Below, in pieces: positions 3,548 through 64,000 of a stretch of DNA of 64,000 nucleotides. Position 1 is the stretch's first letter; each line of letters starts with the position of its first letter. The DNA is from Isurus oxyrinchus (taxonomy: Eukaryota): positions 4,526,001 through 4,590,000 of the forward strand of contig JANJGN010000034.1 in assembly GCA_026770705.1 (NCBI GenBank), written 5' to 3'. The notes under the pieces are model-generated. The model was not told the origin of the DNA and did not search any database. It saw only the letters and a list, made by a program, of their open reading frames with translations. The translations under genes were made by a program, and so were the position numbers.

Positions 3548-3583
3548 AGCTGACGGCATGCAAGAAATCCTTGAAAGAGTTAG
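3548..3583 (+). CDS. Micro-exon A1 (ELTACKKSLKEL)
   Basis: ttcctcttctcag|AGCTGACG..GAGTTAG|gtgaga, 36 nt. Confidence 0.85.
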
Positions 3584-6500
3584 GTGAGAAAAAGAGCATG
3601 TAGTTTACCTTTTCTCGCACCAAAGCACGGGAACAAGTTCTTTTCTTAAAGAAACGGAGCACATCTGACAAGGTTCTGGCTGTCTGTTCTGATCAGGGCA
3701 CATTATTGTTATGATTGACGTCTACAGATTTGAGAGGATTGTTTTACAGGAGATCTGCAAAATGTCATTAATTTACCACTTTCGTCCTAGTGGTATTGGT
3801 AAGGGGCATGAATAAATGCAGTGATGTAATATCTAGGTTACCATTCACTCCATCGTTGGCCTTTCAGCCATTTAATGGGAAAATGATCAGCAACCGCTAG
3901 TGCTTTCCAGAATTGTCTTTATGGTGATTAAATTTGCTTTTGCCTCCAAACGCCAATAATTTCTACTTTACAGAAGATAAGCTGAAGAGAAAGCAAAACG
4001 GTTTTATGTTTATAAATTCAACTCTTATAACCGCTTTCAAAGCCGTGTCTGCAATGGAGTGGAACAGTGGGAGGCAATTCAATTAGATGTACCACTTATT
4101 TTAATACATACATTTATTCATAATGTGTTAATATTCAGGAACAATAAATATTTCAAGAACAGCGGGAATCGTCCATCATGGCAATTACTATAAGCTTTTG
4201 ATGTTGCTGGTGATAATTGCGAAGATGTGAACGATGGTTACTACAGAATTTTAGATTTTCTTTTTAACATAAACAAATATACGATTTTGAACATGTATTG
4301 CAAAACCGTGGCGGAAATTAACTTTAATTATTTATAACTACTTAATACCTTAGAAGTTTCTATCGTTATTCTGAAAGGGTCAGTGTACTCGATCTCGGAG
4401 GCATGTGACTTGTTTACAGGCGAACAAAAATACATCTATTTGCCTTCATTGGAAAAGGGGAATGAAGGGAATTATAAAGTAGGTAACATCCAATAGATAC
4501 ACAAAAGTGATTGCATTAACACGGCAACATTATTTATTTATTTTGAGATGTTACAAGAAATTAATATCATAACGTGCTTATCTGCACGAGTGCTGAATAA
4601 TATTTCATATCGGCCACCAATGCCTTTGGCCTGCTGTGCAGGAGGAAACATATTCGTGAATATGCTTCCACGGTTTATTATTTACCTTCCAGAACTGGAC
4701 GATATCAAAACAGCCACCAATGGCTCAGGTGAGTAACCATGGAGGACTGGATTGGGTATCCCAATTGGTCAACAAATCCAAATTGACGAGTGCAGTTCCG
4801 CAAGCAGATTCTGAGGTGAAATTACCTCAATGAAAGAGACTGTCTGCTGGGGTTTGTGAGTGATTTATTTTGTGCAAATATTTGAGACAAAAACAACGTG
4901 GAGTTCTCCTGAAATTTAGCTGATCGCTCATATTTATTTCAGGTAACAAATGAATCAACAGTGAGGAGGCAGTTGGCTGGGTTTAGTTTGGCATTGCAAA
5001 TTCACTTCTGTCAACTGTTATATTGCAACGTAAAATGTTGACGTTGAGGGAAATGAGAAATAGGAGATGAGTGCAAAATGTCATTGATGAAGATTCTACC
5101 CTGTCTGACAAAATGACAAATTCCAACAGGAAATACTGAAGAGCAAATAATATGAAGCTTTTAGAGCATGAATCATTTGGCATGAACAAACACTCTTCAG
5201 ATGGACATTCCCCAGCAGAAATTGATATGTCACGAATAAAGATTGCAAAATATGTTTGTAGACGTCCAACCGCTCAGATGACGGAATGTAACCCAAGGTG
5301 GCATTTTGGGGAAAACCCCAAAAGCTTTTCTGGCGTTATGGGCTGCATAAGAACGTAATAAATATGAACAGGAGCAGACCATTTTGAAGCACGAGCCTCT
5401 TCCGCCATTCCTAAGGTCATGCCTAATCTTCTTGTGTTCGATGTCCACATTCCCTTTGAACCGCGATAATCTTTGTTTGCCTTGCCTAAATGCAATTTTT
5501 CTAAAACTACCTTAAAAGCATAAAAGACACCGCATCCAACAACTGCTAATGCATAAGGTCCGAAGTCGCACAACCCACTGAGGGGCAAAGGATCTCCTGA
5601 TCTCTGCCCTAAAACAAGGAACCTACTTTACAATAAAAAGAAATCCCTCCTAGTTATGATCTCACACACAAGAGTATGCATTCTTTCGACGTTCACTTTG
5701 TCAAGGCCATTCAGGATTAAGGGATTAAGTAATCTTCAATAAAATCACCCCTCACTCTTCAGAACTCCAGTGAAAATAAGCCGAGCATGGCCAAACTTAG
5801 CTCATTATGACATCCCACTCCTCACTAGTGTCAAGCTAGTACACCTCATTTGAAACACCTCAAATACAATTGCACTGTTTCTTAAACAAAGAGACGAAAA
5901 CTGCACACAGTATTTGAGGTGCAGTCTGAGCAATGCCCGGTACACCTGAGGCATAACGTCCTCAATCCCTGCCATAATAAATAGCAACATTCCATTAGCC
6001 TACCCAATTCTAGCCTCACCTTAAAACTGACCTGTTTGACTAATGTGCTAGAACACCTCGGTTCCTCTGCACATCAGAATTGTGAACCCGATCTCCATTT
6101 AAGCAGCAATTGTTTTTATTTGTTGCTCACTCAGCCATACGTGAACAACTTCACATTTTTCTACATTTAACTCCATGTGCCAGGTCTTTGCCCCGTCGAT
6201 CAACCTACCTACATCTACCTGCAATTTCTTCAGGTCCTCGTCACAAAAAGACATTTCTACTTTTTTTGTGTCATCTGCAAAATTAGCTACCATGTCTTTA
6301 CACCACTCATCGAATTAATTCATGTAAATCATAAAAAGTTGAGGTCCGATTAGATAACCCTGTGGGACTCGACTCATCTTATTTCGCAAATTTGCAAAAT
6401 GGCCCAATTGTGCATTCTCTAAGATTTGTTCCAACCAGCCAACCTTCTGCCCATTTTGGTATTTTACACTCTTAACCATGCGTTTTTATTTTCCATAATA

Positions 6501-9500
6501 ACCTTTGATGTGGCATCTTATGAAATGTATCCTGAAAATCCAAGTGCAGCACACCCACACGCTCCCCTTTATCCACTGCGCATGCAACTTTTTAAAAAAA
6601 TCTTCAATAAATTGTTTAAAGGATATTTTTCTTTCACAATTCCATGATGAATCTTTCTGATTGCCTTGAACTTTTCTACGCGCCCAGCTAAATCCTCCTG
6701 AGTGATCGATTCAAATTTCTCCCCCGCGTCAAGTATGTTCCACCCCTTAACAACAGTACGGAGGTTAAATGTGCTAATCACTTATTCAGATTATTTTGTA
6801 CTCTTTTACTTCAAGCAAATTTAGAGTTTCGTTACAGATATTCACTCAGAGCCAACTTCGCAAAGCTAGCTACTTATTTATAAGCTGAAAACGTGAAGCC
6901 CTTGGGCCATCAGAGAAAATGCCGAAATATCATTTCCATTCTCTCAGTCTGAGTCTTTCCAATAAAAAGCGCCGGATCTTTAACAAGGCCGAAGTTCAGT
7001 TTCTTAATTCTTTCTTTTTGAAGGAAATTGATAAGTTTTTTTATCGTCACAATGCAGAATTTGAGGCTTGCAAAAAAATCTGCAGATTAAATATCGCTAT
7101 TCGTTGGTTCTTATTCATTCGAAAACTAACATTGCTTAACTCTATACACTTTTACCTTGACACCTCCTTCCAGTGTTCTTGTGTTGCAAAGCAAATGCAC
7201 ATCACATTTCTCTGTAACGCTTTTCCCCAAAGTCGTGTTGACCGAGATTTATACCCGTGGCATTCAGCCCTGTGAAGTTTGTTCTTGTGTTCGCATTGAT
7301 CTCTAGTTAAACACTTGTGGTTCCTCTCAGATAGACATCACGAGTATATATCGAGATGAGGCAAGTTATCCGCTCCAAAATTCACTTAGAATTTGGGAGG
7401 CCGGTGCTTAGCTGCAACTGTCTGTCTTGGCTTTGTTACTAATTGAAAACAACTATTGAAAAAAAAGGCCCAGTCTTGAAATTATGCGTTCACCACGATT
7501 TTCAATGATGCATGACGTTTGGGGTCGGGGGTGTGGGTGTGGGGGGTGGGGGGCGGGCGTGAGGTGGGGGGGTCGGGCGTGGGTGGGGGGCGGGCGTGAG
7601 GTGGGGGGGGGGGGAGTTGGGGGGGTGTTCTATTGTTTTCTCCGAACACCTATTGACCCAACAATTAGTCTGCATAAACTCTTGAGTTTATGTTTGTGTT
7701 TTCTTTTGTGTCATTATTTAATGTTTCGCCAATCAGTGGGAATTTCATCTAACCAACCAAATACTTCATTTTTGAGGAACACGTGAATTTGATCACCGAT
7801 CAGCTTTGTGTGCTCAAATTTATTTAGGGTTTTTACTGAAAATTCAATTGCATAAATGATTTTTTAAGACTCGTTCTTGTTTTGAATTTACAATCCACTC
7901 CATGGCTAATCAGATGCTGAGCCAGAACTGAAGGCAGGAACGTCAGTAGGGTAATATCACAGATCTCTTTAACTGAAATAGCAAGGTGCGTAGGAAATCA
8001 AAGTGTCGCAGGCACCTTTTTTTTGCACAATATTTGTCCTGTATTTTATTTTTTTTAAATACAATGTAAGAGAAAAATAAGCGACATCAAAAGAAGGAGA
8101 TGAAATGATTGTGATACCATTACTTAACAGCGGCAATGAAAGTCATAATGTTCTTGAATTTTCATCTTTGGATGAACAAGCTACGGAAATGATTTTTGGG
8201 GGAGATCAGTGGACGGGAGTTGTTGAAGTAAATGCTGCTTTTGCCGGTTTTGCCGGTCAGATGATGTTGTGCTTAGATCTGATCCGGCCTTCCTGCTTTA
8301 ATACTTTATGGCACTGTCCAGGACTTGTATGTTCACAGGATATGAAAGTAGAAGACTGTCAGCGTGATGCCTCCATTCAATTTAAAAGCTTTTGAGCCTG
8401 AATGGCAGCTAAAGCATTTTTATCGAAATGGGAGGGGGATTTTCAAAGACCTGAACGAATAGCTGCAGAGGGTCAGTAGCGTATGTGTTTTCGGAATTAG
8501 TGCATCAATCCAGAAACTTTCCAAGGATTCAATGCCAATTCCACCGCCCCACACCCATTACCAGCACCCCCCCCCCCCCCCCACCGCCCCACCCCGCCGC
8601 GTTCCCTCTTCCCTTTTCCAGGTAACTTACACAAATGCTCTAAAGGATATTTTGGCTGCTTCCGTATTCTCGCTGACATACACTTGACCAATGTCACCGT
8701 TGCCACAGGCTGTTTATAATCTGGTCGTTGGAACTGCTTCCCTGATATCTCCTCTTGGCATTTTATTGTAGATGTATTTCAACACTGCATATTAGCCAAG
8801 ATTTGGCCAGATATCCCATAATGTAAATTATGACTCTTTGTCACATCTGTTGCATATAAATTGACGTGTAGGGTTCTGTGCATTTTGCAATACATTTGAT
8901 TGGCTATTTTTTTTTGAGAAACCAATTTATGAACAGACATTGAAAATGCTGCAAATTAATATGTTCATAAGTTCCTTTTCCTAATTCCAGAGCTCACCAC
9001 ATGCAAAGAATCTTTGAAGGCATTAGGTGAGAACGTGGACATGGGTTATGTAAAATCTTGCCAGATGACATGGAGACGACTAATCTAAGAGAGAAACACA
9101 GCACAGATGGCATTGCTCTAGATTAGTTCTTTCTTGCACGGCGAAGAAATCTTAGTTCCATTGACTGCTAACAATCTAAATATCAGCCGATATTTATAAC
9201 AGATAGTCTGTAAGATGAGACCTTTTTACGACAATGGTCCAAGAGGTATCTGTGGGGTCACATGACTGACTACAGCGATGATTTATTGATTTCAGCAATA
9301 ACAACACATTGCTCTATATATTGTACAAGGCATAGAAATGCTCCGAAATTCTAACAGTTTTCTCCTTATACATCAATAGCGCTGCATTGTATTATTTTCT
9401 CTCAAAGTCAATTTGTTTAGCTTTGCAGAAGAAAAGCGAAAGCAAAACAAAATTGTATTAAAATTTGAAATTCAACTATTAGCAGTCCTCGCAAATAAAT

Positions 9501-12500
9501 TGCGCAGTAATTGTAATTCAAACAGCCCTGCAATTCAGCTTAATATGTAGAGTTAATTATACAACATTAATACTAACACAATAAATGTTGCCAGGTAAAA
9601 GCTAGGTCAGATGCTGGTGGCATTTGCCTGCTGAAGGAGGTGTTGCTGTAGGCGATCTGAATATGGGTCTATAACAAAATAGTGGGTAAATTTCGTCATA
9701 GCAAATTGCAGGAAACGAGACGATATTGCAAATTAAACAAAGAAAAATATTTTTGGTAACTGCTTCACACCTGAGAGATGCACACCGTTCATATGGAAGG
9801 TCACGTGCTACGTTCATCTTCAAAGGCAACATTAAAGTATATATGGCTTGGAATGCCTGAAGACAGTCGACCAAATTGCCCTTTCATTGACCAAAATGGA
9901 AAAAAATGAATAATGCTAAACACTTGAATACTTACTGATGAGGTGAGGATCAACTCATTTTAGTTACATAATTGATTAGAAGAAAATAAGCAGATATCGC
10001 AAACCATGGTAAGTCAATTGCTTAATTAATGCTATTGCATAATCAAACATCAGAATTCTGTTCTCTGCACTTATGCAAAAAGCTGACATCGTCCACCAAT
10101 GTTTGGGTCTGCTGTGCAGGAAAAAGGCAGGTTCGTACATATGCAATCTCTTGATTATTTATTTCTGAAACGATCTGTTCCTCATTCTTCAAGAGCTGGG
10201 AGAATTCAAAAAAGCCGCCGATAGACAAGGTTAGCAAATGAAGAAGATCGGGCACGGAATGGCTCCTGGTAAACTGATTGAAATGGTTGGACTGCAGAAT
10301 AGACGGCGATGTCAATGCAATTAAATCAACTATCTGATCCATGAGAGATCCGGTTATTTTTCTTTTTTACAAACTTACGAATGAAATTTGTATGGATGTT
10401 TAAATTTATTTCACATCCCAAAAGACCCAAAAGGGAGCAATTGTTTGTGACGGTTTGGGCGGGCGCGGCAAAGATGCAGATTCAACTTTGACAATTGTTA
10501 TGTGCGCACCCCACATGTTGACGTTAACCAAACTCAACTACGGGAGAAATCTCCAAGCACAAGCAATGGGTCTTTTTATCTTCTTATTTTTTCTCTTCCA
10601 ACAATGACAAATTTCACCGCTCTATGGTTGATGGAAATTAGATTTGAGCTGTTTTTCTCAGTATTAAATAGCATCAACAATGCAGTTCAGATTGACAGTC
10701 CATAAGATTAATTGACACATCCCAATTATAATTCAGAAATTTGATTATGCAAGTACAGCTGATCAGTTGAATTAATGAACAGACGGTAACATTTTGGAGT
10801 GGTACAAATAAGCATTCTGCCATTAGGGATATTTATCTTACATACATCCTCAGTAGCAACAGTGTGTTCCCTGCTCAATTATTCAATCAATTTCCCGTTA
10901 TTTTCTTTTGATGTGAGAAACATCGAAGAACTTTTTACAACATTGAATCAATTATTGATTTTCAAACGAAATTTTTTGACTGTGAACGGTTTCATGAAGG
11001 TTCTAGTGCTTATAACGACAGCATAGAAATACAGGATGTAGTGTGTGCTTATACCCAATAGAGAGCAGAGCAAGCTTCCGAAGCTTGGATATATGAAAAC
11101 TGTGTTTATGGTGGATTATCATAAATGGAACCAATGAATCACATATAAATGTCCTGTAGCGCATGGGAAAAAAAAATAGAAAACACATATGTGACGCCTG
11201 TTTATGCAATTTCAAAAGCCTACTCACATTCATGAAGCAGAACGAAGGTAGTGCAATTTAGCGACATCACAGTTCAACTAGATCGTCGGAAATCCCTAGT
11301 CAATTATTCCTGACCATCTTGTGATGTTTGTCTTCAAATCGCAGTATTAAATATCATGGTCTCCATTGTGAAATTGTGCACTTGACTTAACATTCATTGC
11401 TGTGCCTGTTCTATTCCATCACGTACCCGCTCTAGTCCCATCCCCACAACATCAGCGCACAACAATGACCATCTGGCATCACCTCGCGAAGTGTTATTCA
11501 TAACTTTAGCGAAGTTATTATTGTAGTATCACCCATGAGATGAATTTCCTTATGTCCATCAGAACTACCAAGTATTGCATTCATTTTGAAGACGTTTATT
11601 GGTTCACCCGATAACTATTGTTAGTGAAGTGAATTAATACATCTTCCTGTCTAACTGATTTGTGAGCAATTTCGAAATTCCTCTCCTTAATTGAGGTGAA
11701 TCTGCAGTACTTCATTTCCAGGTCACCTCCATGGTATACAGTTGCGGTATGGGTACTCCAAGCAGGATCATGAATTTGGTTGAACATGAATGAAATCTAA
11801 CTGCATAATTCAAATTACCCCCAAAGAATATATAAAAATTAATAATCTAATGCTCTTAAATTGACACAATATTGTCAAATTTATTTTTATTTAACTTCGC
11901 AGAGAAAGAAATAAAGTCAAAAAAAGGTGAACAATTATGATATCATGACTTTAAAACATTAATTCTTGTCATTTCCCTTTTACCCACAACTGAATAGCGT
12001 AGTATTGACTACTTTGTAGAGTCGTGGACGGGAGTTGGAAAACTGTTTTGAGAATTTTACGCTTTTTTTTTTAGATTCTGCTGAGCTTAGATCTCTGCAA
12101 TCTTTCCGTCTTTGATGTTGAACTTCACCGATGTCGGCTTCCATTGTAGGATGATAATCTTCTGCTGTGATGTATGTGAAATTCGTTCCTGCTTTGGTAA
12201 TTGGACGCAATCGATACTGAATGGCTGCAAAGACATTTCTCCTATTCTGAATGGGGAGGAAAATTCACGAATACCTAAGCTGATAAAGCAGGGGCAAGGC
12301 TCTGTCATTTTCTCGAAATTGTTACTACATTGTTCATAATCTATTACCGCCTAACTAGGTAGCGTATGCTGATATTTGTGAAAATGCATTAGGGAAACAC
12401 GGCAAGTGATTCAAACGATCAATGTCTGAGATTGGCGTTGACCAACACGCCCCCCTTGACAATTTAATGAGATTCATTGTTAGCAAAAAGTTGAAGCGTT

Positions 12501-32349: not shown

Positions 32350-32388
<39 letters not shown>

Positions 32389-53300: not shown

Positions 53301-56300
53301 ATTTGCTGCAAGTTAAATTATTTTTTAAATTCACTTAATTAGTGGCAGAAACGAAATCAAAAGAAGCAGGTAATTGATCACTAAATTACTGCTCACTAAT
53401 GGTAATTGAATTCATATCGTTCCTGTTTATGCTCAAGTGAATTGTGCTGAAATGATTATTGCGGGCATGAGTCCACGACGTGGCCGACGTGGCATTATTC
53501 GCTCTGCGCTTATATATGAATGATTCCACACCCCCTCCACCCCCCACACCACCACCCTGATTTAAGGCCGAACTGTCCTGACTTCAGTCTTGTACGTTAG
53601 GATGATAATCAAGTGCAAAACTGAAAGTATGATTTTTTAAATCGGGCACATCGTATTGCGATGAATGGCAGCCACCAAAATTTGTTTACAGATTTGGAGA
53701 GGAACTTGGTGAATGCGAGCAAAAAGGTGCGTTCTCATTCATTGTCCGAAATTATTACCTTGATGGGCGTAGTCTATCCCCGACTTTTGCCGTATTTACG
53801 TTGAGATATATTAATGCGCATCAGCGTAAGAAGAAAATGCCATTCGAGAAAATAAGGGATCTGAGTGATGTTTTGTCCCACAGCCCTCACCCCATCTCCT
53901 TGGTAATATAATAATCACATTATTCACAGCAGTTTTAGGAAATTGTGGCACGTTTTAAAACATTGGTTCTTCCGATCTTGTTTAAGCTTCCGAAAACTAA
54001 CCTTGTTTTGTTTTGTTTTCTTCCCCTGGAACATAAAGAAACACCTCTATCTCTGAGACACTTGCAGTTCTCTAATGTTGATCTATTGCTTAGCATTGAT
54101 CGTTGCCAATTGGTAGCTGATGGCGGTACTGAAAGCTGTTTAGCATCGAATTCGAGGGCTCCTACCTAAAAAAGATGTGCATTGCATTTTCGTTCTCACA
54201 TTCTGGCACTCGCTTATCTCCCTTAACGGAGATGTTTACTAAATAACACCTTATGCATATTGCGGTTTGCTGTGTTATATTTTCCGAAGGATGTTGTGTC
54301 GAATTCTCTTTTTTTCCCGCACTTTTCTGTGAAGCTCTCTCTCTGAGGATAAGTTGCTCTTTCTGCAAATTAATGTGCGTTTTGCTTCATTGCAGAGCTT
54401 ACGGCATGCAAAAAATCTTTAAAAGACTTAGGTGAGAAAAAAGTTGTATTCTGAAAACTGACACATGAAGACCCTCTAAGAATTTCTTCAGATGAAGCAA
54501 CGCTGCACTGTTGATATTGTGCTAGTTGTCTGCTTTACACACCGCCACAATCTTAGTTACATTCACTTGGATGGATTAAATTATCAGGTGGTCCGTACAG
54601 CACTGTGTTCATAAAATGCTTCCCGTAAACACTTTTGTCCAAGTTGCATTTCTAGTGCGAGATGACTGAATGCTATGTCTTATACAGGTTACATCGCACC
54701 GTCAGTTGGGCATATTTTCAACAGGGCACAGATATTTCCAAAATTAGTAAGCGCTTTATAGGATTACAGTTTCTGCGGCAAGCTTTCATGTTGTGCTCAA
54801 AATCTATATATTTTGATTTACAGAAGAAAAGCTGAAAGCTAAGCAAAACGGTATTAAGATCATAAATGCAAATGTTATAATGTGAATGGTGCCAGCGGTC
54901 AGGTGACACTGCAAAAAAGAAAAGGAAAACTGCAAAGTAATTTAATCAGTCGCGCCATTTATCTCAATACATAAATTTAATCATATTTCATTAATCCTGG
55001 GGCCTAATGAAAGTTGCCAGAATAAACGCAATTCAGACCCTATTTGCTTTTAGTCGATAACAGGGATATTGACGGTGATAGTTGCAACGATTTGCATAGA
55101 ATTAATTAATGATACGGAGTTGCGGACTTAGGTAATTACATGGATTTCAACAAATATTGCGAAAGAGACAGGAAAACTATCTTTAATTGATGATAAATAT
55201 ATCTTGACCTGGTAAGGGCACATCATTCTTGTGAAATGGATAGTGCTGTCCACATCTTCAGTGGTGTAGAAAATGTGGGTTTTCTTTGCCTATAATGCCT
55301 GTTTACTGTCGACCTAATTATCAGTCCATTTGCCATGAATGAAAAAGTAACATCATGCAGAGTACGTGACTACTTACGAAGAAAATGATGTTTAACATAT
55401 ATGCCATTATTGAATGGGAATACCAAAATATAATGACATTAAAACAACAAGAATGATTTATTTATCATTTGCTGCATTAATTTTACGGCAAATAGTGGTT
55501 ATCTGGAACCTTGTAAAACTGAATCTCAAATTAGGCTGCCAATGGTCTTTGCCTAACGTATATGAGCAGGAATGTTCAAGAAATCACAACCTCTTGATTG
55601 CACATATCTGAAGTGGCTTGTTCAACCTTTGTTTTGATGTGGCAGATGGTGTGTGCCAAAGAGCGAAATTCATGAGGTTGAACTGTAAAATAGTTTTGCA
55701 ATTTATATTTGTTTTGCGATTCCTGCACTGAATTCTGTCTTAATTTGCTTCCAAAGCTTTTGGAGATATAAAGAAAAATATAAGTTGAAATTAATTGAAT
55801 GAAATGTGACAAACGCACAAATAAGACGATATTTATTACTATTATAATTCCAAAAAATGATAATTAATTTCGCTCCCAATTGCAACATCGTTAAGGCAAC
55901 GGTCCAAAAGTAGACTTCAGATTTTAAACAGATCCAGGAAATGAACCGTGGAGTTCCAAATGTTTTTTTCTCCAGCTTCAGTTCCAGTTGATAGCAAGTT
56001 TATTGACAGCAGGTTCATGCGCAAATGCTGGAGACATTTCCCACACTTCTCACAACACCGTCCCCTGACGTATAGCCTTGCTATTCCTTATATACGTTTC
56101 TTCCTTTTAAATAAGTAAATTTTATGTTTTCATATGATTTGACACTGCACCTGCGTCAAAATAGAAATGCTGCTGCTATATATTTTCAGTACTCTTTGGA
56201 AAAAAAACAAACATCCCTTGGTCTTGCTTATCTGGCTAGTTGTAAACAGACTAAAACCACTTTGAAATACAAATGTTACTTCATCTATCAAAAATGGAAA

Positions 56301-59300
56301 TTATCTTCACACGAATGCAAATGCAACATCCATTTTTACTAAAGTATGCCAAGCGTATAGCGTATTTTGATTAGATAAAGGTTGCAGTTCGCTTGATTCC
56401 AATGGAAATTAAATCACACAAATATGAACAACTGGACTCCCCCTCATAATCATACTCGACAACAAACCTGAAAGATATTACGCAATTAATTATACTTTCA
56501 TTTAATCCTTCTAGAACTGGACGATGCCAACAATACCACCATAGAGTCAGGTAAGCAACAATGAGAAATTGGTTTGGAATATTACTGCCATGACGATTGG
56601 TTGGTATCTCTCTTCGACATTTAACCTATACTTTTTCATCGCCATCCTTTTATCATCCGCTTATTAGTGGTAATCGTGTAATTGTCTTTAACAGGGCGAA
56701 TATTTCATTGCACTGGACCTCTTGAAATTAATCATCCATTAATGTTCTATTGCAAGTTAAATTAAAGGCTAATTTTGAAATCTTTATTCATGTTATATTT
56801 CTTAAAGCCTCCCTGCAATTATCGTGAAGACGCAGTGTGTCACTTTCAATTTCAGTCTTTCGTTAATCAATTGCAGTGCCAGAACTGAATAAGTGGTCCA
56901 ACCTCAGCTTTAAGTAGCTGCTTAACTGGCATATGCATAATCTCAAAGCATCTCAGAACGCTTTATATTCTAATTGGTTTTAACGAACTTAACAGATGAA
57001 AAAATGAAATCAAACGAGAAAGGTAATTCACTTTGAAAACAATACTTCATAAAAACAATGCAAATCATATTCTTACATTTATTTTTCAAGTGGTTGCTGC
57101 GGAAATGGCGGATCGGAAGATTAGTTAACGGGAGATTGAGAAGTCAATGACCATGTTATGTGTCTTGGTTCATTTGGTGGTGGGCTTACACCTTAGCGAG
57201 ATTTCTGTGTTTAATGCTAAGCTTCACTGGCTTTGGCTACTGTATCGGAACGTAATATTATTTCATCACTGAAAATGTGTTTCCTTCCTTCTGGCACATT
57301 TTTGGCTCAGTTTATGCTGAATTTCTGCCAAAAAAAACTTGCTTTTAATTAGGAAGTCAAATTCCAAACACCCCGCGAACAAGAGCAAATGTCCTGTCAC
57401 GAATCACTTTTTAAATTGACACCTCACATTTCATAATCTAAAACAGAACATCCGCGTAAATTATAATTAAAAATATTAATGAGTATGAGGACACATATCA
57501 TTCGATCTAAACACTCTATGTTTGATTTTGGCCTTGTCCCGCTCTTCCCTTCCACAATGCAGTGTCATACAATACTCGCAGTGATGCCCTGTGTCTCAGA
57601 AATTTGGAGTAATACCGACTTTCTTTCCCCAAAACTGTTCACAGTCGCTGAATAAAATTCCAGCAACTAACTCACTTACCAACAGCACTGTGGTCGTGCT
57701 TAAATTCACATGGACTGCAACAGTTCAAGTGCAACTGGGGATTGAGACAAAATGTTGGTCAGGCTATTGAAACCTCCATCCGTTCATGAATTTTTAAAAT
57801 ATTCTCGATATCTTCTTCCATTAGAACATAAAGGAATAACGGAACCCTCCAGGATAATTGCGTTTCTCCAATGATTTGGCCGCGTTACCTGCCCTCTGAT
57901 TCGCTTTCATATTTGTTTTTTGTCTAATTTTATCTCTAGTTTTGGATTAGTTTCCATGAACGTTTGTCATTCTTGTTGTGGTTAGCGCCATATGATGCCA
58001 AAATAATCTTGTTGCAAACAGATACTTTCTTTATTCCAGAGCTGGGTCAATGCAAAGAATCCTTGAAAGGCTTCGGTGAGAAAACATACACAGATTATGA
58101 AAGCCATCGGAAAACATCAGGGCAACAATTTATTCTGGAAAAGATATAAGTGCTGTTGATATTTTGGCCATCAGTTTTCTTCCAGGAAATTTGACTTATA
58201 TATATAAAACCATCAAGCAATAAATATAACAGGAGGTTAACGTAATACTAGACAGATTGTTATTTGTTCTTCCACATGCCTGAATGTAGTGACGTCCTAC
58301 TTAGGTAACCAATCAAATTCTCTTTGGTCTGTATCACATGCGGTAGAGCAATGCAAAACAACTGCATCTGTATTTGATAATTGTGTTGTTCACAGTAAAG
58401 AATGATGTTAAATGATAAAGTCATTATTTCTGTTTTACAGAAGAAAAACTTAAAGCAAAGCAAACCGGTAATATGCCTTGGTATTCAACTACTATAAATG
58501 CATTAATAAAATCTGTTAGCAATGAAATATTAGCAGAGGCTGTGATTCATTTTACCGTGGATTTTATGATTGGGATGTTGATGGTGATAGTTGCAAAGAC
58601 CCAAATGACGATCTGTCAGAAGATTGACTTTTATTCATGTTGCATAATGACACGATCTTGGACATGTATTCGAAATTTACAAGGAACAGTACCTTTATTT
58701 GTTAATACCTGCCTCATGCCTGAGGCAGACACGTCGTTATTGTGAAAAGTAAAGTGTGATTTTTGTCCGATATGATAATAAAAAAAGATTTTTTTTCCTG
58801 TGTAGCAGACCTTTTAGCAGTTGAACTAATTTTCCATTTGCCTTCAGTGGAGAAAGTGGAACAAACAGATGGAATTAATGTCAGCTCAAATAATACTCAC
58901 CATTGAATGGATGGATCTTCAAAAACGTATTGCAATAAGAAGCTGAAAATCAAATTAGTTATTTTTATAGTGGCAGTGTGATTCCAAATTTGGTTATCTG
59001 CTCCAATTGGATGCAGAATTTCACATCGGGTTACCAATACGTATGGACTGATGTGCACGGAACGATATGCTAAGAATTCCAAATCTCTCCATTGTCTATA
59101 GATGAAGTGATCTATTCTTCATCCTTCTAGAACTGGACGATGTTAAAAAGGCTGCCGATGGAACAGGTTAGCACACAGCAAAGGTTAAGGTTGGAACGCC
59201 TGTTGGTAATAGGCTGACATTGAGGATTACAACATTGAACACGTATTATAATTTTCTGTGAAGTCAATAAAGCAGTATCTCTGGTGAGGAATTTAAGCCA

Positions 59301-62300
59301 TTTATATTCTTCAATCGTCTGAGACAGAAAGGTTCTGCAGTCCTCCTGACATCATCGGGACCTTAACATTCAATTCAGAACTCAAATGAATCTGCAAAGT
59401 GGAGGTGATCAAAATGAATTAAAGAGGCATGGAATATAAGCAAACTAACTTCTTGCAACAATTACGTCTGCAATTGAACTGTCCAATTTAGCGAACTCAG
59501 CAATGGAAGGAGTCTGTAACAACTTATTGACGAATGAACTCCTGGCTATGAGAAGTATAAATTTCAAAGTTACATATCTGGGGGAAATATAATTAATATG
59601 TTGCAACAGCAACAATATGGCATGAAGAAGTCCAAGCCACATGCAAAGTCCGCAGAAGAAATTAACACGTAGCAAAAAATTATTCGGATTTTTCTTCACT
59701 CGAAATTTAATCGTTTAGTTGATGGAGCAGTGCCTGTGGAATCACAAAACTGAAATTCACAGAAGCCCCCCTGGCTTTCGAGGGAAATAGGTCTTTTTCA
59801 CTCAGCCAATCTCAGTAGAAATAATAAATGTGCTTGCATGCTATTTGTTTTTCATTTAAATTTTGTTTACTGTGTGCCAAAAATGAGAAATTCACTCCCA
59901 ACATTGCATCAGACACATATTTGCAAACATGTGTATCTGCCAGTAAAGCGTTTATGGACTGGCAGAAATACATTATACAGGTCACCAATAATGCTTCTGT
60001 CAAATAGGCAGCCATTAGTTTTGAAAAACCTTGAAGAGATGCATTCAAAGGTTTTGAGTTTCTCTTCGAAGTAAAGAGATGAAATGGTTTACTTCCACAA
60101 AAGCAGAATTCGAAGCATAAAAGTAATCTTTAAAATGTACACGTGAGAGGAATCTTGCTTACACTGACGACGCTAACACAGCTATCCACGAAATAAATGT
60201 TGAGTGAAACTGCGTTTCAATGATTCTATGTAGCAAAAGAGAGTTGTCATCATGTTTACTATAGTCCATGTCTACAGCAATAGCATCCACAGGCATTTAT
60301 AAGCTTCAAATTCAATTCTGTAGATTAGATTAATGCATGCCCATCACTGGCTTGATCAAAAATTTTTCCCAATCCCAAGCGAGCATAAATGAAAAAGTGC
60401 TGCTGTGCATAAGTGAGAGTCTACCCTATCAAGCTCGTTGAGATGCAGCTCATCTCTACCCACAATTATGAAGCTTAAAATAGGAACATACGAATAGGCA
60501 GCTTAGATGCTCAAATTTCACTTAAATCCGGGAAGATATGGACCGAGCTATTTTCAAAGCCATCTTCGTGGCTTTCGTACGTAACATTCTCTAATTTAAA
60601 ATAATGTTTGAAGTTCTGTAGCCAAGCACTGAGGGAGTCCCTAAAACATGCACATCAGTCGTTGATCAGTTTTCTCCTGTCTACATGCTCCCACGGCATT
60701 TTATTGACATCACCCCACGATGTTTTATAAATAATCTTAAACTGTTCTTTTTATAGCTTCCTAATCTTATATGGTGTAAAATTTTACTGCACTCGAGCCT
60801 TAAAACTGCTAGACCATTAACGTTCTATCCTGAAGCGATTTCAAGCTTTTTTTTTTTACCAAACGTTCATTCGTAATTCATATCTTAAAGCATCGCTGCA
60901 ATTTTGGTGAATCTCCAGTATATGTGATTTCCAGGTCCTGCCCATCTCTTTTCAGTTGTGGTACGACAACTCAAAACAAGGTTAAACATGATCATTATCT
61001 AAATGCATAACTGATATAAACACAAAAACTCAATTCATCACATAACGCCCTTCATATTTTTCAAAGTATACAGTCTGTTGTAATTAATATTCATGCACTT
61101 TTGCAGAGAAAGAACTGAAATCAAAAGAAGCGGGTAATTGATTGTAAAATCATTATGTCAGAACGGCATTGCAAGTGAAATGTTCCCATTCTTTTTTTGA
61201 GTGGATGCTGTGAAAATAGCTTTTTGGGAGATTGCTTACAAGGTGATGGAGAAACGAATATTATTACCCTCTTGATTCAAACGGTGCTGAGCATACATCT
61301 GAGCAAGGTTTCTTAGTTTTAGGCTGAACTGCACTCTCTTCGACTTGTGTGCAACTAATTTATTCTATTGCAGCATTGAGAATATGTTTCCTTGCTTCAG
61401 GCGCATTTTGACTCAGTTGAGTCTGAATTACCGTAAACGTACTTCAAGCCCCGATTGGAATTACAATTCAGAGGGATGTCGTCCAATCCTCTTTCCAAAT
61501 TAACAATTCAAATATCATAAACCATGACCTGCATAGTTTGCATTAAATTACACGAGGACAATAGGACAATCAAAATAAACTAAACATCTCTAAATTTTGT
61601 TTCCTCCCACTTTCCCAATTTATAATGGGTTTGGGAAACAATATTCGCAGTCCTGTTAGGAATGTCTGAAAGTTTCGGCAACATATATGTGTTCCCCCTA
61701 ACTGTTAAAGGTTAACATAAAAGCTCAATACTCTCCATCTGTTTTCTAGTACACAAAACAAACAAAACAGCCCTCTTACGTCCTTGCACTTCTCCAATAC
61801 TGCCAAATGTGCATCCAAAATGTACGCCCCCTGACAGCTGCCAACATTACTTTCAACTTGGTATAATCTGGAATTGCTCACTTGAGGAACTTTGCTTTGC
61901 TGTTTATCACTCCAATATGTTGGCATTATTTGTTAGTTCCATCCTTAACAAAAAAACATATCCACATAGACTCATTACCTGTCTCCTGCCACGTTGCTGT
62001 TTTTGTTGTGCACAGGTTTCTCTGTTAGAAGATACATAGCCCTCGAATGTATTTAACAAGCCTTTTTTGTTGAAGCTGCCAATATGGTGGCACGTTAAGC
62101 TTATCACAAATTAAAATGTTCCTCATTCCAGAGCTCACTGAATGCAAAGAGTCTTCGAAAGATTTAAGTAAGAAAACATACTTCTCACGTAAAATAACTC
62201 CATAGTAAAGGCAGGGCAGCAACGTCATATAGGACACTAAAGCAGGACAGGTGACAACGATTTATACGGAGCTTTTACCCTTTGGCCATTTTATAACAGA

Positions 62301-63197
62301 TAGGTCCTCCTCATCAGTATCGTATTTGAACAGTTGCTTGTCTGAATCTAATGGTGGCATATTGATGCGACCAATCTTCTTTGTGTTGGCCAATATTCCA
62401 ATTGCTGCAGGGATGGGCACAATTAGCCTGCTTTCTGGAAGTGCACTGTTCACACTGGAATTTGCCGTTGTCTCATGAAGACATTAATTTCTGATTTATA
62501 GAGGAAAAGTTGAAGGACGTTCAAAAAGGTATTTCATTTATCAATCCAACCGGCTAAGGAGGCATTACGAAGAGTGGTGTGAAGAACATACTGCAAGATG
62601 ATGAGAGTTGTGATGAAGTGAAGGTGGATTATTAATTACATTGAATTTTTTTTTCAATGCATAATTGAACGAACTTGAAAAGTTTTTTTTTATTTTCAAA
62701 TTTCTGCTTTAAATAACCTTTACATATTGATAGCTAGGTCATGCGAACAGATCCAATACATTTTTCTGAAAGTCCAGATGTGATCTCCGTCTTCTAAACC
62801 AAGGAATAATACACAAAATCATTTTTCTGGCGCGCCTGCTTCTAGTCGCCCCAAGTTTCGTGTTGTTTGTCATCAGGGGAAAAAGGAAATCATGCAACCT
62901 ATGCATCCAATGAATCTCAACTCAAAATTTGTTAATCACTGAATGGATATAGCATCAACCGTTCAATATAGCACGCAAGGGAAATGTGGTTGTTTAGTGC
63001 TATTCAGACAACAGCTTAAAATTAGGTTGTGTGCATCGTTGGAGCATAATTTTACATTGAACCACCTATGGATTTGGTCCGTTGTGGAGGAAGACGCATA
63101 TATGGAATTTGTAATATCTTGATTGTATATATCTGAAATGATCTATTCTTCCTTCTTCTAGGACTGGACGGTTTCAAAAAAGTTATTGGTGACTCAG
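3548..63197 (+). CDS. Internal part of a multi-exon gene: tandem array of 27/36-nt phase-1 micro-exons encoding a long Cys-containing heptad coiled coil; start and stop outside the window
   Basis: 48 homologous micro-exon copies of 4 types, most with polypyrimidine-AG acceptors and GT donors, lengths 27 or 36 nt, all phase 1-1. The joined translation is open, e.g. ELTACKKSLKDL-EEKLKAKQN-ELDDANNTTIES-DEKMKSNEK-ELGQCKESLKGF-EEKLKAKQT-ELDDVKKAADGT-EKELKSKEA. Confidence 0.85.
3974..4000 (+). CDS. Micro-exon B1 (EDKLKRKQN)
   Basis: ctttacag|AAGATAAG..AAAACG|gtttta, 27 nt, weak donor. Confidence 0.75.
4693..4728 (+). CDS. Micro-exon C1 (ELDDIKTATNGS)
   Basis: ccttccag|AACTGGAC..GGCTCAG|gtgagt, 36 nt. 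Confidence 0.85.
5680..6690 (-). mobile_element. Decayed CR1-type LINE fragment (RT and 3' part of ORF2)
   Basis: Minus-strand ORF pieces VANFADDTKK..LQVDVGRL..WHMELNVEKCEVVH and YRALLRLHLKYCVQFSS. Confidence 0.85.
7520..7626 (+). repeat. G-rich low-complexity tract
   Basis: Runs of G with repeated gggcgtgaggtggggggg units. Confidence 0.8.
8073..8099 (+). pseudogene. Dead micro-exon D1
   Basis: AA AAA TAA GCG ACA TCA AAA GAA GGA G|atgaaat: in-frame TAA and donor GT changed to AT; expected position ~0.9 kb before A2. Confidence 0.6.
8991..9026 (+). CDS. Micro-exon A2 (ELTTCKESLKAL)
   Basis: attccag|AGCTCACC..GCATTAG|gtgaga; intact but flanked by damaged exons. Confidence 0.7.
9429..9454 (+). 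pseudogene. Damaged micro-exon B2 (26 nt, frameshifting)
   Basis: ttgcag|AAGAAAAGC-GAAAGCAAAACAAAATT|gtatta; 1-nt deletion against the B consensus CTG. Confidence 0.7.
10194..10229 (+). CDS. Micro-exon C2 (ELGEFKKAADRQ)
   Basis: ttcttcaag|AGCTGGGA..AGACAAG|gttagc. Confidence 0.65.
11903..11926 (+). CDS. Micro-exon D2, shortened to 24 nt (EKEIKSKK)
   Basis: ttcgcag|AGAAAGAAATAAAGTCAAAAAAAG|gtgaac; original donor lost, a GT 3 nt upstream keeps frame. Confidence 0.6.
12924..12959 (+). pseudogene. Dead micro-exon A3 (ELNSCKEYLKEL)
   Basis: Acceptor cctg instead of ccag; donor gtatga. Confidence 0.7.
13165..13275 (-). repeat. Short interspersed repeat fragment
   Basis: Reverse complement reads aaaatcttggaaaaatcagctggtctgagggcatccatggaccgaaatacagagttaac, similar to the + copy at ~21630. 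Confidence 0.5.
13478..13504 (+). pseudogene. Micro-exon B3 (DIKLNEKEK) ending in T; would form a stop with the next exon
   Basis: ttgcag|ATATAAAGCTG..GAAAAGT|gtatta; T plus AA or AG gives TAA or TAG. Confidence 0.65.
13810..14550 (+). mobile_element. Highly decayed CR1-type LINE fragment
   Basis: gtggagttccacagggc..cttggg (RT region) and a 3' end gggctgaatggccttcttctg. Confidence 0.65.
15038..15073 (+). pseudogene. Dead micro-exon C3 (ELDDVAKAAGSS)
   Basis: Acceptor cctg instead of ccag; donor gttggc. Confidence 0.7.
17047..17071 (+). pseudogene. Damaged micro-exon D3 (25 nt, frameshifting)
   Basis: ttaag|AAAAGAAATTAAACCAAATATCTAG|gtaaat at the D position ~1 kb before A4. Confidence 0.55.
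18089..18124 (+). pseudogene. Dead micro-exon A4 (VHNPCKESLKGL)
   Basis: ttctcag acceptor intact; donor atacga (GT changed to AT). Confidence 0.7.
18600..19760 (-). mobile_element. Probable decayed LINE fragment inserted where exons B4/C4 are expected
   Basis: Higher-GC block that interrupts unit homology; family and orientation not firmly assigned. Confidence 0.4.
19830..21210 (+). mobile_element. Old CR1-type LINE 3' fragment with a nested younger copy
   Basis: QGDLGIQV..ILSFITRGIEHK..VVLQFARAPVTPHLE; continues after 21040. Confidence 0.8.
20605..21040 (+). mobile_element. Younger 5'-truncated CR1-type insertion with candidate 8-bp target-site duplication acttttga
   Basis: MRGDLNENYRTLKGLDRMDVGKM..RTRG; tail ggtcttat-ggtcatat-ggccttat; acttttga at 20597-20604 and 21041-21048. 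Confidence 0.75.
21628..21730 (+). repeat. Short interspersed repeat fragment
   Basis: aaaactgaaaacgtgaaaaatctcaccaggtctttcagcatttgtggagacggaaactgattaa, homologous to the minus copy at ~13200. Confidence 0.5.
22845..22871 (+). CDS. Micro-exon D4 (EREMKTKEE)
   Basis: tttaacag|AAAGAGAA..GAAGAGG|gtaaat. Confidence 0.85.
23852..23887 (+). CDS. Micro-exon A5 (ELSKCNEALKEL)
   Basis: attccag|AGCTCTCC..GAACTGG|gtgagt. Confidence 0.85.
24210..24540 (+). mobile_element. CR1-type LINE 3' fragment in the A5-B5 intron
   Basis: LLETYNILIGRDRRGVDMMFPL..VVEAKS. Confidence 0.7.
24677..24703 (+). CDS. Micro-exon B5 (EGKLKAKEK)
   Basis: ttttacag|AAGGAAAA..GAAAAAG|gtattg. Confidence 0.85.
25464..25499 (+). 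CDS. Micro-exon C5 (ELGSVKKAADHS)
   Basis: ccttccag|AACTGGGA..CACTCAG|gttagc. Confidence 0.85.
27437..27463 (+). CDS. Micro-exon D5 (GDELKAKEA)
   Basis: ttttaacag|GAGATGAA..GAAGCGG|gtaact. Confidence 0.85.
28514..28549 (+). CDS. Micro-exon A6 (ELIACKESLQGL)
   Basis: cattgcag|AGCTCATT..GGTTTAG|gtgaga. Confidence 0.85.
   Translation, partial: SSLHAKNLCRV
29208..29234 (+). CDS. Micro-exon D6 (EGKLKIKEE); this unit lacks B and C
   Basis: tttcaacag|AAGGAAAA..GAGGAGG|gtaatt with D-type flanks. Confidence 0.8.
30299..30334 (+). CDS. Micro-exon A7 (ELTACKESLNIL)
   Basis: ctttctag|AGCTGACT..ATTTTAG|gtgaga. Confidence 0.85.
30707..30732 (+). pseudogene. Dead micro-exon B7
   Basis: ttttgctg|GAGGAAAGTGACAACAAAGAAAAACA|at; both splice sites lost, at the expected distance from A7. 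Confidence 0.45.
32316..32388 (+). repeat. (TG)n/(AG)n microsatellite
   Basis: gtgtgtgt..gagagag run. Confidence 0.9.
32480..35040. mobile_element. Cluster of highly decayed CR1-type LINE fragments in both orientations
   Basis: + fragment ~32500-33100, - fragment ~33200-34000, + 3' fragment ~34430-35040 ending ggcctactgctgttcttaac; boundaries approximate. Confidence 0.55.
35492..35528 (+). pseudogene. Dead micro-exon C7
   Basis: Acceptor cttg; a 1-nt insertion gives AA CTG GAC AAA GTT TAA; donor altered. Confidence 0.65.
36940..36965 (+). pseudogene. Dead micro-exon D7 (EGKIKSVEE-like)
   Basis: ttaactg acceptor and ataatt donor, both mutated. Confidence 0.6.
38106..38141 (+). pseudogene. 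Dead micro-exon A8 (DITTCKEDLRDL)
   Basis: attccag acceptor intact; donor ctgaga (GT changed to CT). Confidence 0.7.
38520..38546 (+). CDS. Micro-exon B8 (EAELNAKQE)
   Basis: ctttacag|AAGCAGAG..CAAGAAG|gtggga. Confidence 0.8.
39200..39235 (+). pseudogene. Dead micro-exon C8 (ELDKVKKAAESS)
   Basis: Acceptor ttcctt (no AG); donor gtttgc. Confidence 0.7.
40184..40219 (+). CDS. Out-of-pattern A-like micro-exon (ELKTCKDTVKET); alternative acceptor at 40175 adds 3 codons
   Basis: ttattacag|acaattcag|AACTCAAAACCTGTAAAGACACTGTGAAAGAGACAG|gtacgg. Confidence 0.7.
41487..41513 (+). CDS. Micro-exon D8 (EEKMKSKDE)
   Basis: tttaacag|AAGAAAAA..GACGAAG|gtaaat. Confidence 0.85.
42503..42538 (+). CDS. Micro-exon A9 (ELTTCKKSWKKL)
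   Basis: cattgcag|AGCTCACC..AAATTAG|gtgtgg. Confidence 0.8.
   Translation, partial: SSPHARNHGKN
42850..43860 (-). mobile_element. CR1-type LINE 3' fragment with a second repeat nested at ~43480-43620
   Basis: LINE 3' end cacagaa..gaaggagtccatcagacccatcg; minus ORF WIPLPGRVPEACTIKAFGRKL; lengthens the A9-B9 intron. Confidence 0.65.
44019..44042 (+). CDS. Micro-exon B9 (EKLKGKQN) using a shifted acceptor
   Basis: Canonical acceptor mutated (ttacac at 44015); AAG 3 nt downstream gives an in-frame 24-nt exon; donor gtatta. Confidence 0.55.
44771..44806 (+). CDS. Micro-exon C9 (xLDEIEKAANDS)
   Basis: ccttccag|AACTGGAT..GACTCAG|gttagc. Confidence 0.85.
46790..46816 (+). CDS. Micro-exon D9 (EEKAKSKDK)
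   Basis: ttcgacag|AAGAAAAA..GATAAAG|gtaatt. Confidence 0.85.
47650..47995 (-). mobile_element. CR1-type LINE 3' fragment
   Basis: aacattaggcttaggagcagggagaggcc..tcatagctgatct..ttcaatgacccc, the reverse complement of a LINE tail. Confidence 0.65.
48274..48309 (+). CDS. Micro-exon A10 (ELNDCKKSFKVS)
   Basis: cattccag|AACTAAAT..GTCTCAG|gtgaga. Confidence 0.85.
48602..48628 (+). CDS. Micro-exon B10 (EQKLKEKQE)
   Basis: ctttacag|AACAAAAA..CAAGAAG|gtacta. Confidence 0.8.
48927..49250 (+). mobile_element. tRNA-derived SINE (decayed)
   Basis: 5' ggggaggcggtggcatggcggta (A-box-like), ggtttcgaattcc (B-box-like), A-rich tail. Confidence 0.6.
49662..49697 (+). CDS. Micro-exon C10 (ELDIVRKNAENS)
   Basis: ccttccag|AACTCGAC..AACTCAG|gttggc. 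Confidence 0.85.
53343..53369 (+). CDS. Micro-exon D10 (VAETKSKEA)
   Basis: ttaattag|TGGCAGAA..GAAGCAG|gtaatt. Confidence 0.7.
54396..54431 (+). CDS. Micro-exon A11 (ELTACKKSLKDL)
   Basis: cattgcag|AGCTTACG..GACTTAG|gtgaga. Confidence 0.88.
54824..54850 (+). CDS. Micro-exon B11 (EEKLKAKQN)
   Basis: atttacag|AAGAAAAG..CAAAACG|gtatta. Confidence 0.85.
56515..56550 (+). CDS. Micro-exon C11 (ELDDANNTTIES)
   Basis: ccttctag|AACTGGAC..GAGTCAG|gtaagc. Confidence 0.85.
56996..57022 (+). CDS. Micro-exon D11 (DEKMKSNEK)
   Basis: cttaacag|ATGAAAAA..GAGAAAG|gtaatt. Confidence 0.85.
58040..58075 (+). CDS. Micro-exon A12 (ELGQCKESLKGF)
   Basis: tattccag|AGCTGGGT..GGCTTCG|gtgaga. Confidence 0.85.
58441..58467 (+). 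CDS. Micro-exon B12 (EEKLKAKQT)
   Basis: ttttacag|AAGAAAAA..CAAACCG|gtaata. Confidence 0.88.
59131..59166 (+). CDS. Micro-exon C12 (ELDDVKKAADGT)
   Basis: ccttctag|AACTGGAC..GGAACAG|gttagc. Confidence 0.88.
61107..61133 (+). CDS. Micro-exon D12 (EKELKSKEA)
   Basis: ttttgcag|AGAAAGAA..GAAGCGG|gtaatt. Confidence 0.88.
62132..62167 (+). CDS. Micro-exon A13 (ELTECKESSKDL)
   Basis: cattccag|AGCTCACT..GATTTAA|gtaaga. Confidence 0.85.
   Translation, partial: SSLNAKSLRKI
62502..62528 (+). CDS. Micro-exon B13 (KEKLKDVQK)
   Basis: atttatag|AGGAAAAG..CAAAAAG|gtattt. Confidence 0.8.
63162..63197 (+). CDS. Micro-exon C13 (GLDGFKKVIGDS)
   Basis: tcttctag|GACTGGAC..GACTCAG|gttagc. Confidence 0.8.
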
Positions 63198-64000
63198 GTT
63201 AGCACACAAACAAGGCTGGGTTGGGGCTGCCTCTTGGTAATGGAACGAGATTGAGGATTGCAGTTTTGAGCGCAGGTTATTACCGATGCTGAATTAATGA
63301 CGCAGAATGCCTGAAATTATGTTTATACATTTCTTGTTATTTAAAATTCTGGAGACAATAAACTATGCAGCTCATCTGAAATATCGATGGAATTGAAGAT
63401 TCCATTCAGATTCCAATTGGCTCAAAGTGTTGAAAATAATGGAGAGATCTTGGGAATGTTAAATACGCAGTTTCACATTTGCAAACTATTATATTTCCAG
63501 CCCTCGATTGACGGTAGCAGACCTGAACAATGAAGCAGTTCTGCTACTAGGACATTGATGAAGGAACTCACGGTTTTGTTCTCGCCAAGTGCACGTTTCA
63601 ACCCTTTGTATCTGCTGTGAAGTAGAATTAACTTGTTTCAGCAGCAACAGTCCAGCATGAAGTTGTCGAATTTAGATGTGCATTCTACAGCAGAAATATG
63701 TTTATGGTAATTCAGCACGCAATTGAATGAACAGATCTCTTGGCAAAAATTTGGAGAAGAACTATCACGGCATGGGGTTGATATGCATTCAAACTTAGCC
63801 ATCCTCGGTGGAAAGTCTACATGCAGTGGTCAAACAATCAACACATTTTCTACTCGTTTGTGTGTGCAAATTCAGAGCTTTGTTTCAAACATTGAATCAG
63901 TGATATGTTTTGAATTGCCATTATTAGGCTGTAAATCGTTGCTCGATGTCCCAGTGTACAGAAAAAAAGACGAATTAGAATTGCAATTGTATTATTTCCT

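Follow-up and report, generated by a model that had tools for sequence, protein, structure and literature searches.

A predicted micro-exon gene for a long coiled-coil rod with a terminal B30.2 domain in Isurus oxyrinchus, with relatives in other cartilaginous fishes

TRIM coiled coils are encoded by two exons, of 96 and 234 nt, and the enterophilins of guinea pig combine a long heptad repeat with a B30.2 domain, without a known Ig or transmembrane part. According to published accounts, TRIM proteins join a coiled coil serving multimerisation to a B30.2 domain encoded by a single exon (PMC2657112), the cytoplasmic part of butyrophilins consists of heptad repeats followed by B30.2 (PMC4046983, PMC12841164), and enterophilin-1 is a partner of sorting nexin 1 (PMC13749957). 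Chicken BG genes have many small exons of 7 (sometimes 8) residues that are presumed to form a coiled coil and are alternatively spliced (PMC4046983), and schistosome MEGs spread their coding sequence over very short exons, mostly multiples of three in length, again with alternative splicing (PMC10526429). A literature search, with subscription papers and supplements outside its scope, found no description of the family reported here.

The window analysed is a stretch of 64,000 nt, positions 4,526,001-4,590,000 of contig JANJGN010000034.1 (C34), from the 4.98-Gb genome of Isurus oxyrinchus; long coordinates below are those of the contig.

The micro-exon array and its host gene

Position-weight models placed 51 copies of 36- and 27-nt exons on the + strand of the window, between 3548 and 63197 (Table 1); 10 shuffles of the window and the minus strand of 464 kb gave zero above-threshold matches to the same weight-matrix models. 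A repeat search of the window returned short conserved blocks in four families, with AG/GT-like sites at their ends and with intron flanks duplicated along with the exons. An earlier sequence-only reading had claimed about 48 tandem exons of four recurring types. The array, its strand and its order hold, with the count at 51, and so do types A, B, C and D (13, 10, 11 and 10 copies), but a fifth, 36-nt slot, E (7 copies), had been missed. The cassette has five slots in the order A36-B27-C36-E36-D27, with slot E mostly dead in the window, where one copy is live. All copies are in phase 1-1 and 36 of the 51 keep AG/GT, in line with what had been proposed; 35 of these 36 are open, one keeps both sites and has stops, and the remaining 15 copies have lost AG or GT. 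From 22845 to 63197, where some 30 usable exons and 315 residues had been expected, 29 model exons join into 305 stop-free residues, or 30 exons into 314 residues if an extra exon at 53700 is admitted; that exon has a weak acceptor and is probably false. The measured coding share of 1.8% agrees with the earlier figure of about 2%. Exon 13478 ends in T and with 22845 gives TAA at the junction, so that 13478 must be skipped.

Table 1. Exons of the window (weight-matrix models; window positions) and terminal exons of the host gene (contig positions)
Exon	Position	Strand	State or remark
Likely non-coding first exon	ends 3,998,627	+	strong donor, common to next paralog
111-nt exon	4,005,537-4,005,647	+	most 5' coding candidate
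Most 5' 36-nt exon candidate	4,010,266	+	recurs in next paralog
A, 36 nt	3548..3583	+	AG/GT, open
B, 27 nt	3974..4000	+	AG/GT, open
C, 36 nt	4693..4728	+	AG/GT, open
D	8073..8099	+	donor broken, stop
A	8991..9026	+	intact
B	9429..9455	+	broken; donor shifted one base
C	10194..10229	+	intact
D	11903..11929	+	donor broken
A	12924..12959	+	acceptor broken
B	13478..13504	+	AG/GT, open; junction stop with next intact exon, likely skipped
C	15038..15073	+	acceptor broken
E	16044..16079	+	donor broken
A	18089..18124	+	donor broken
E	21832..21867	+	acceptor broken, stop
D, 27 nt	22845..22871	+	intact
A	23852..23887	+	intact
B	24677..24703	+	intact
C	25464..25499	+	intact
D	27437..27463	+	intact
A	28514..28549	+	intact
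D	29208..29234	+	intact
A	30299..30334	+	intact
C	35492..35527	+	acceptor broken, stops
E	36486..36521	+	donor broken
A	38106..38141	+	donor broken
B	38520..38546	+	intact
C	39200..39235	+	acceptor broken
E	40184..40219	+	intact; sole live E of window, C partner dead
D	41487..41513	+	intact
A	42503..42538	+	intact
B	44016..44042	+	acceptor broken
C	44771..44806	+	intact
E	45759..45794	+	acceptor and donor broken, stop
D	46790..46816	+	intact
A	48274..48309	+	intact
B	48602..48628	+	intact
C	49662..49697	+	intact
E	50647..50682	+	donor broken, stops
D	53343..53369	+	intact
A	54396..54431	+	intact
B	54824..54850	+	intact
C	56515..56550	+	intact
D	56996..57022	+	intact
A	58040..58075	+	intact
B	58441..58467	+	intact
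C	59131..59166	+	intact
E	60107..60142	+	AG/GT kept, two in-frame stops; likely skipped
D	61107..61133	+	intact
A	62132..62167	+	intact
B	62502..62528	+	intact
C	63162..63197	+	intact
27-nt linker exon, Trp at position 2	4,814,251-4,814,277	+	precedes B30.2 exon
Terminal B30.2 (PRY-SPRY) exon, 173 codons with stop	4,816,507-4,817,027	+	Pfam, profile and model

Other features of the window lie in its introns: a G-rich tandem repeat (7523-7624) and a C-rich counterpart (8541-8595) in the intron around a dead D exon, and high-copy interspersed repeats (contig depth in the hundreds to thousands) at ~52,200-53,100 and 55,900-56,300. In two sequencing runs guessed to be RNA, window positions 44001-64000 were covered on repeats only and no exon joint was seen, which gives no evidence on expression. 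A search for RNA runs containing the B30.2 exon and its 3' flank listed none.

The window is the middle segment of a host unit of ~0.81 Mb on the + strand, and micro-exons run on both sides of it, from 4,010,266 to 4,811,964. A scan of 811 kb gave 40 candidates of 21 nt, 105 of 27 nt and 91 of 36 nt on the + strand vs 2, 1 and 0 on the minus strand, scored with splice and composition models that were trained on the same exons. The non-overlapping gene model has 228 exons; without 13478, the site of its sole junction stop, 227 exons give 2,236 stop-free residues with a net charge near zero (519 K+R, 542 D+E). The median intron is ~2 kb, and a block of 21-nt exons lies at ~4.07-4.18 Mb, the 5' block containing 35 of them. 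Tandem duplication units of 26.7, 7.45 and 1.25 kb were found in the gene. A 7.45-kb tandem copy, 99.2% identical and carrying one 27- and one 36-nt exon, lies outside the window (window-relative 99,475-114,371) and is either a very recent duplicate or an assembly duplication.

Of 182 steps along the array, 145 switch between a long and a short exon and 37 break this alternation; in 5,000 shuffles the mean is 90.8 and the maximum 117. The strongest hydrophobic period is 3.5; it scores 0.82 with the true exon order, and none of 200 shuffled orders exceeds 0.64. Across 74 long-short pairs, the six core positions are apolar in 93, 88, 77, 51, 89 and 9% (consensus L, C/L, L, L, L, K), and the g-e' positions are mostly E/K, S/E and K/E, charge-complementary as in parallel coiled coils. 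The 21-residue unit had been read as three heptads, and heptads do cross the exon junctions, but the sixth core position is Lys in 52 of the 74 pairs and not hydrophobic. Cys occupies exon position 5 in 34 of 88 36-nt exons and in 12 of 35 21-nt exons.

Ends of the gene and its family

The terminal exon of the gene lies ~227 kb beyond the window. B30.2 was one of several termini that had been suggested, along with C-type lectin, fibrinogen and Ig domains, and it is the one found at the 3' end: the exon matches Pfam SPRY (E 2.9e-14) and, by profile, the BTN3A1 B30.2 (E 2.2e-32), and its structural model (pLDDT 80.5) has TRIM7 and BTN3 B30.2 as top folds (TM ~0.77). The best named word-search matches are shark TRIM-type proteins at 33-36%, and the 27-nt phase 1-1 Trp linker exon also occurs in a shark gene that carries an IgC exon. 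In the 724 kb tested there is a single B30.2 exon, which together with one 111-nt exon brackets the array.

At the 5' end, a strong donor common to this gene and the next paralog (3,998,628 and 4,848,607) has no ATG-led open frame before it. The next paralog opens, 42 kb past the stop of this gene, with copies of the 111-nt exon and the most 5' 36-nt exon in the same order; neither has a second copy inside the gene. The paralog of the 111-nt exon was found by DNA search and missed by protein search. Both 111-nt exons have an in-frame ATG (codon 10 in this gene, codon 2 in the paralog), and such an ATG after a likely non-coding first exon favours a predicted cytosolic protein. Before the ATG of this gene stand eight apolar codons that the paralog conserves in frame; 4 of the 5 differences fall at third positions, a hint that a leader exon was missed. 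No leader exon common to both paralogs was found; a nine-codon candidate at 3,981,461 was discarded, lying in a dispersed repeat (40/40 scored matches).

Among 142 upstream open frames of 68+ residues from the two paralogs, a set that includes the closed 42-kb interval before the next paralog and leaves out frames crossing 10-kb fetch borders, none matches Ig, RING, B-box or other Pfam domains. C2-set_3 (IgC) has no match on C34 below 16 Mb (110/110 candidates scored), while the V-set search scored 150 of 3,319 candidates only. No 57-239 nt exon candidate in either 5' region encodes a 19-residue apolar stretch for a transmembrane helix, in a search of single exons from which a helix split over two small exons would escape. 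Six shark TRIM-type queries against the 724 kb matched the B30.2 exon alone, the 5' region had no real match to the N-terminal portions of eight relatives, and N-glycosylation sequons are not in excess (9 vs 8.6 expected). With Ig, transmembrane, RING and B-box exons not found at its 5' end, the gene is therefore neither butyrophilin nor TRIM.

Five such genes lie in 4.8 Mb of C34, with related B30.2 exons from 2.71 to 7.50 Mb (40-58% to this one). The 27-nt exon pattern has 27 genomic matches: 24 in the C34 cluster on the respective gene's strand, one beside a related B30.2 on contig C21, and two elsewhere; the reversed control has 9. We note some particular members: (i) The next paralog (4,848,600-6,396,330) starts ~31 kb past the stop and may span ~1.5 Mb, the next B30.2 being found at 6.396 Mb; at 5.79-5.82 Mb it has exons similar to types A and D. 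(ii) A head-to-head paralog occupies 3,474,125-3,974,961 on the minus strand, with candidate micro-exons to ~24 kb from the likely first exon, and a shared promoter region is possible. (iii) The B30.2 exons at 6,395,827 and 7,496,450, 1.1 Mb apart, are nearly identical and their linker exons identical, through recent duplication or conversion of the 3' ends. (iv) On C21, at 89.72 and 91.33-91.35 Mb, two family members with 27-nt micro-exons sit inside a large TRIM/butyrophilin cluster.

Profile searches found relatives in skate, ray, sharks and chimaera under generic names (TRIM69-like, TRIM39-like, TRIM58, A33-like, BTN3A1-like, nuclear-pore anchor-like). They include XP_055510696.1 of skate ('TRIM69-like'), XP_042192744.1 of chimaera ('nuclear-pore anchor-like'), the catshark RefSeq models XP_038668997.1, XP_038671249.1 and XP_038672306.1, and two further RefSeq models of cartilaginous fishes, XP_069775384.1 and XP_078422387.1. 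The suggestion of a micro-exon-encoded coiled coil in a lineage-specific protein is supported by sequence, but the protein is not wholly unseen. Relatives have 175-1,722 residues, i.e. 175-460 for most named ones, 945 for one catshark model and 1,697-1,722 in chimaera. Pfam finds only SPRY/PRY, without RING, B-box or Ig, in 8/8 relatives scanned, and a coiled coil lies in front. Of 18 gaps between isoforms or re-annotations, 11 are of 9 or 12 residues, and three consecutive 9-residue units of the 945-residue catshark model match three predicted 27-nt exons, in order (the C21 ortholog); skate-protein matches to the 3' exons keep the order only partly. The RefSeq relative models presumably rest on RNA. 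In chimaera, a non-heptad insert of some twelve 8-residue Thr/Ser/Asp/Pro repeats interrupts the rod, and this gene's model shows none; a search with the chimaera rod returned only itself, and an atlas search with the chimaera N-terminus had no match. The skate protein, whose single-sequence fold is poor (pLDDT 45), hit SPRY clusters in the atlas; in one of these, of 1,579 residues, 34% of members carry a coiled-coil family (at 0.84), which is taken as a lead only.

A B30.2 tree of 63 rows was built with isoforms and duplicates left out and with 25 further rows picked by profile score. A long 100/100 branch separates the 17 family rows, all on one side of it, from shark TRIM and butyrophilin domains; the seven 'BTN' rows were labelled by nearness to an IgC exon only, and no non-chondrichthyan protein among the 63 rows falls in the family clade. 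Because the tree is midpoint-rooted only, an origin from TRIM or butyrophilin is not fixed.

Constraint on the exons and competing readings

Between -100 and +98 kb, 1 of 89 splice-intact copies has stops, compared with 10 of 32 splice-broken ones (Fisher p 5e-6); for the window alone the counts are 1 of 36 vs 5 of 15 (p 0.006). Conservation among window copies peaks on exons and splice sites. The pairwise identity of intact copies is 0.65-0.70 in exons and 0.27-0.39 in introns at 40-60 nt in, a contrast inflated because the comparison is ungapped; in the gapped 26.7-kb duplicate, exons have 23 differences in 252 nt (9%) vs 17% overall. The expectation of exons better conserved than introns holds for identity; at the amino-acid level constraint is uneven. 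Between paralogous copies, dN/dS lies at 0.22-0.39 in slot A and 0.25-0.33 in slot B, but comes to ~1.1 in C and 0.64-0.93 in D, and the 26.7-kb duplicate gives ~0.8 on few sites (5/44.5 synonymous and 16/183.5 non-synonymous sites changed). Constraint on single residues is thus weak in half the exons; what is kept is the frame, the splice sites and the core positions, while most surface residues drift. Among the 13 cassettes in which both C and E were seen, C is kept in 6, E in 4, neither in 3 and both in none (one-sided p 0.049, the cassettes not being independent); loss of C or E retains the 12+9 rhythm.

We consider it fairly likely that the exons of the window are spliced into a predicted cytosolic, parallel homo-oligomeric rod of at most ~2,450 residues with B30.2 heads at one end; splicing into one mRNA, a start codon within the 111-nt exon, behind a first exon that is non-coding, and the oligomer state are what we infer. 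Each 36+27-nt pair would add three heptads and each 21-nt exon one, so the rod would grow by tandem cassette duplication and shrink by splice-site loss or skipping, without frameshift and with register mostly kept. At the coiled-coil rise of 0.148 nm per residue, an unbroken rod would measure ~330 nm. By analogy with TRIM and butyrophilin tails (PMC2657112, PMC4046983), the rod would multimerise and space the B30.2 heads, which would bind ligand avidly, and it may serve as a spacer or scaffold presenting them.

Perhaps instead a small upstream exon starts a signal peptide or anchor, making the protein a secreted or membrane-tethered, disulfide-linked extracellular fibre, structural or for recognition, with Cys at core d. 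We find this unlikely, although the frequent Cys at exon position 5 (34/88 and 12/35) would suit it, as would the in-frame conservation of the apolar eight-codon stretch of the 111-nt exon in both paralogs and the apolar starts of the relatives: in both chimaera models two R-x-K-R motifs follow an opening stretch of ~15 apolar residues, and the skate model is also apolar at its start. The skate and epaulette-shark apolar starts may, however, be intron read-through, because their ends fit the residues that an AG acceptor gives. There is also no leader exon common to the two paralogs, the best candidate being a dispersed repeat, no excess of sequons and no transmembrane exon candidate. That the middle of the gene is instead a largely skipped, decaying store of exons, with working mRNAs joining a short 3' rod to B30.2, seems quite unlikely to us. 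It would account for the 16 dead copies of the window's 51, for dN/dS near 1 in C, D and E and for the shortness of most named relatives (175-460 residues), but splice-intact copies are almost free of stops, the array keeps its alternation and heptad register, C and E are never both alive in 13 cassettes (the p of 0.049 again being for non-independent cassettes), and long models of 945 and 1,697-1,722 residues exist.

A decayed non-coding repeat or an assembly artefact mimicking exons we regard as highly improbable. Intron flanks are duplicated too, and a tandem copy of 7.45 kb beyond the window reaches 99.2% identity, but the strand-specific excess is of exactly 21, 27 and 36 nt, conservation peaks on exon and splice site, and the B30.2 end is intact. 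Moreover, a contig of another organism is colinear with window positions 56239-64000, with 603 differences in 7,729 letters (~8%); the array is no assembly artefact, since such a contig exists at this divergence.

For the rod with B30.2 heads, we offer a wider proposal tentatively, at somewhat less than even chances: an unrecognised cartilaginous-fish family of megabase genes built almost wholly from heptad-preserving micro-exons, older than the shark-chimaera split, with free rods of several hundred nm and a private B30.2 class, in which length would be set by exon birth, death and skipping, i.e. a tunable molecular ruler serving recognition or scaffolding. This gene, with ~230 exons, would then be among the most exon-rich of vertebrates. 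The array and its paralogs point to ~4.8 Mb of shark genome taken up by five genes which standard annotation would overlook or mislabel, and to a B30.2 clade found here in cartilaginous fishes only. The genes would be a natural experiment in splicing fidelity over ~230 micro-exons and in selection that keeps coiled-coil register by killing whole exons, and they bear on how butyrophilin and BG tails and TRIMs share one exon toolkit. Should the gene prove to be expressed at full length, both the ligand bound by the head and the tissue could be tested directly.

Comparison with known systems

Chicken BG genes resemble this one in the 35 21-nt exons of its 5' block. They differ in having signal, IgV and transmembrane exons and a 3'UTR exon last, whereas this gene ends in B30.2, consists mainly of 12+9-residue pairs and spans 0.81 Mb. 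TRIM proteins (shark 'nuclear factor 7'/A33-like, finTRIM) share the combination of coiled coil, here by sequence pattern, and B30.2; this gene has no detected RING or B-box, and micro-exons take the place of the two coiled-coil exons. Schistosome MEGs have 10-20 exons, are secreted and have no known homology and no heptads or B30.2, compared with ~230 exons here. The enterophilins, alike in architecture, are mammalian and far shorter. The RefSeq models of cartilaginous fishes, compared by protein sequence only, share the B30.2 clade, the coiled coil and gaps of 9 or 12 residues. Butyrophilins share phase 1-1 heptad micro-exons, the 27-nt Trp linker and a single-exon terminal B30.2. They differ in that this gene has no detected Ig or transmembrane exon, ~320 heptads rather than a few, and a B30.2 in a clade separate from that of shark butyrophilins (63-row tree). 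By analogy, the gene would work like a butyrophilin or BG cytoplasmic tail set free and expanded ~hundredfold.
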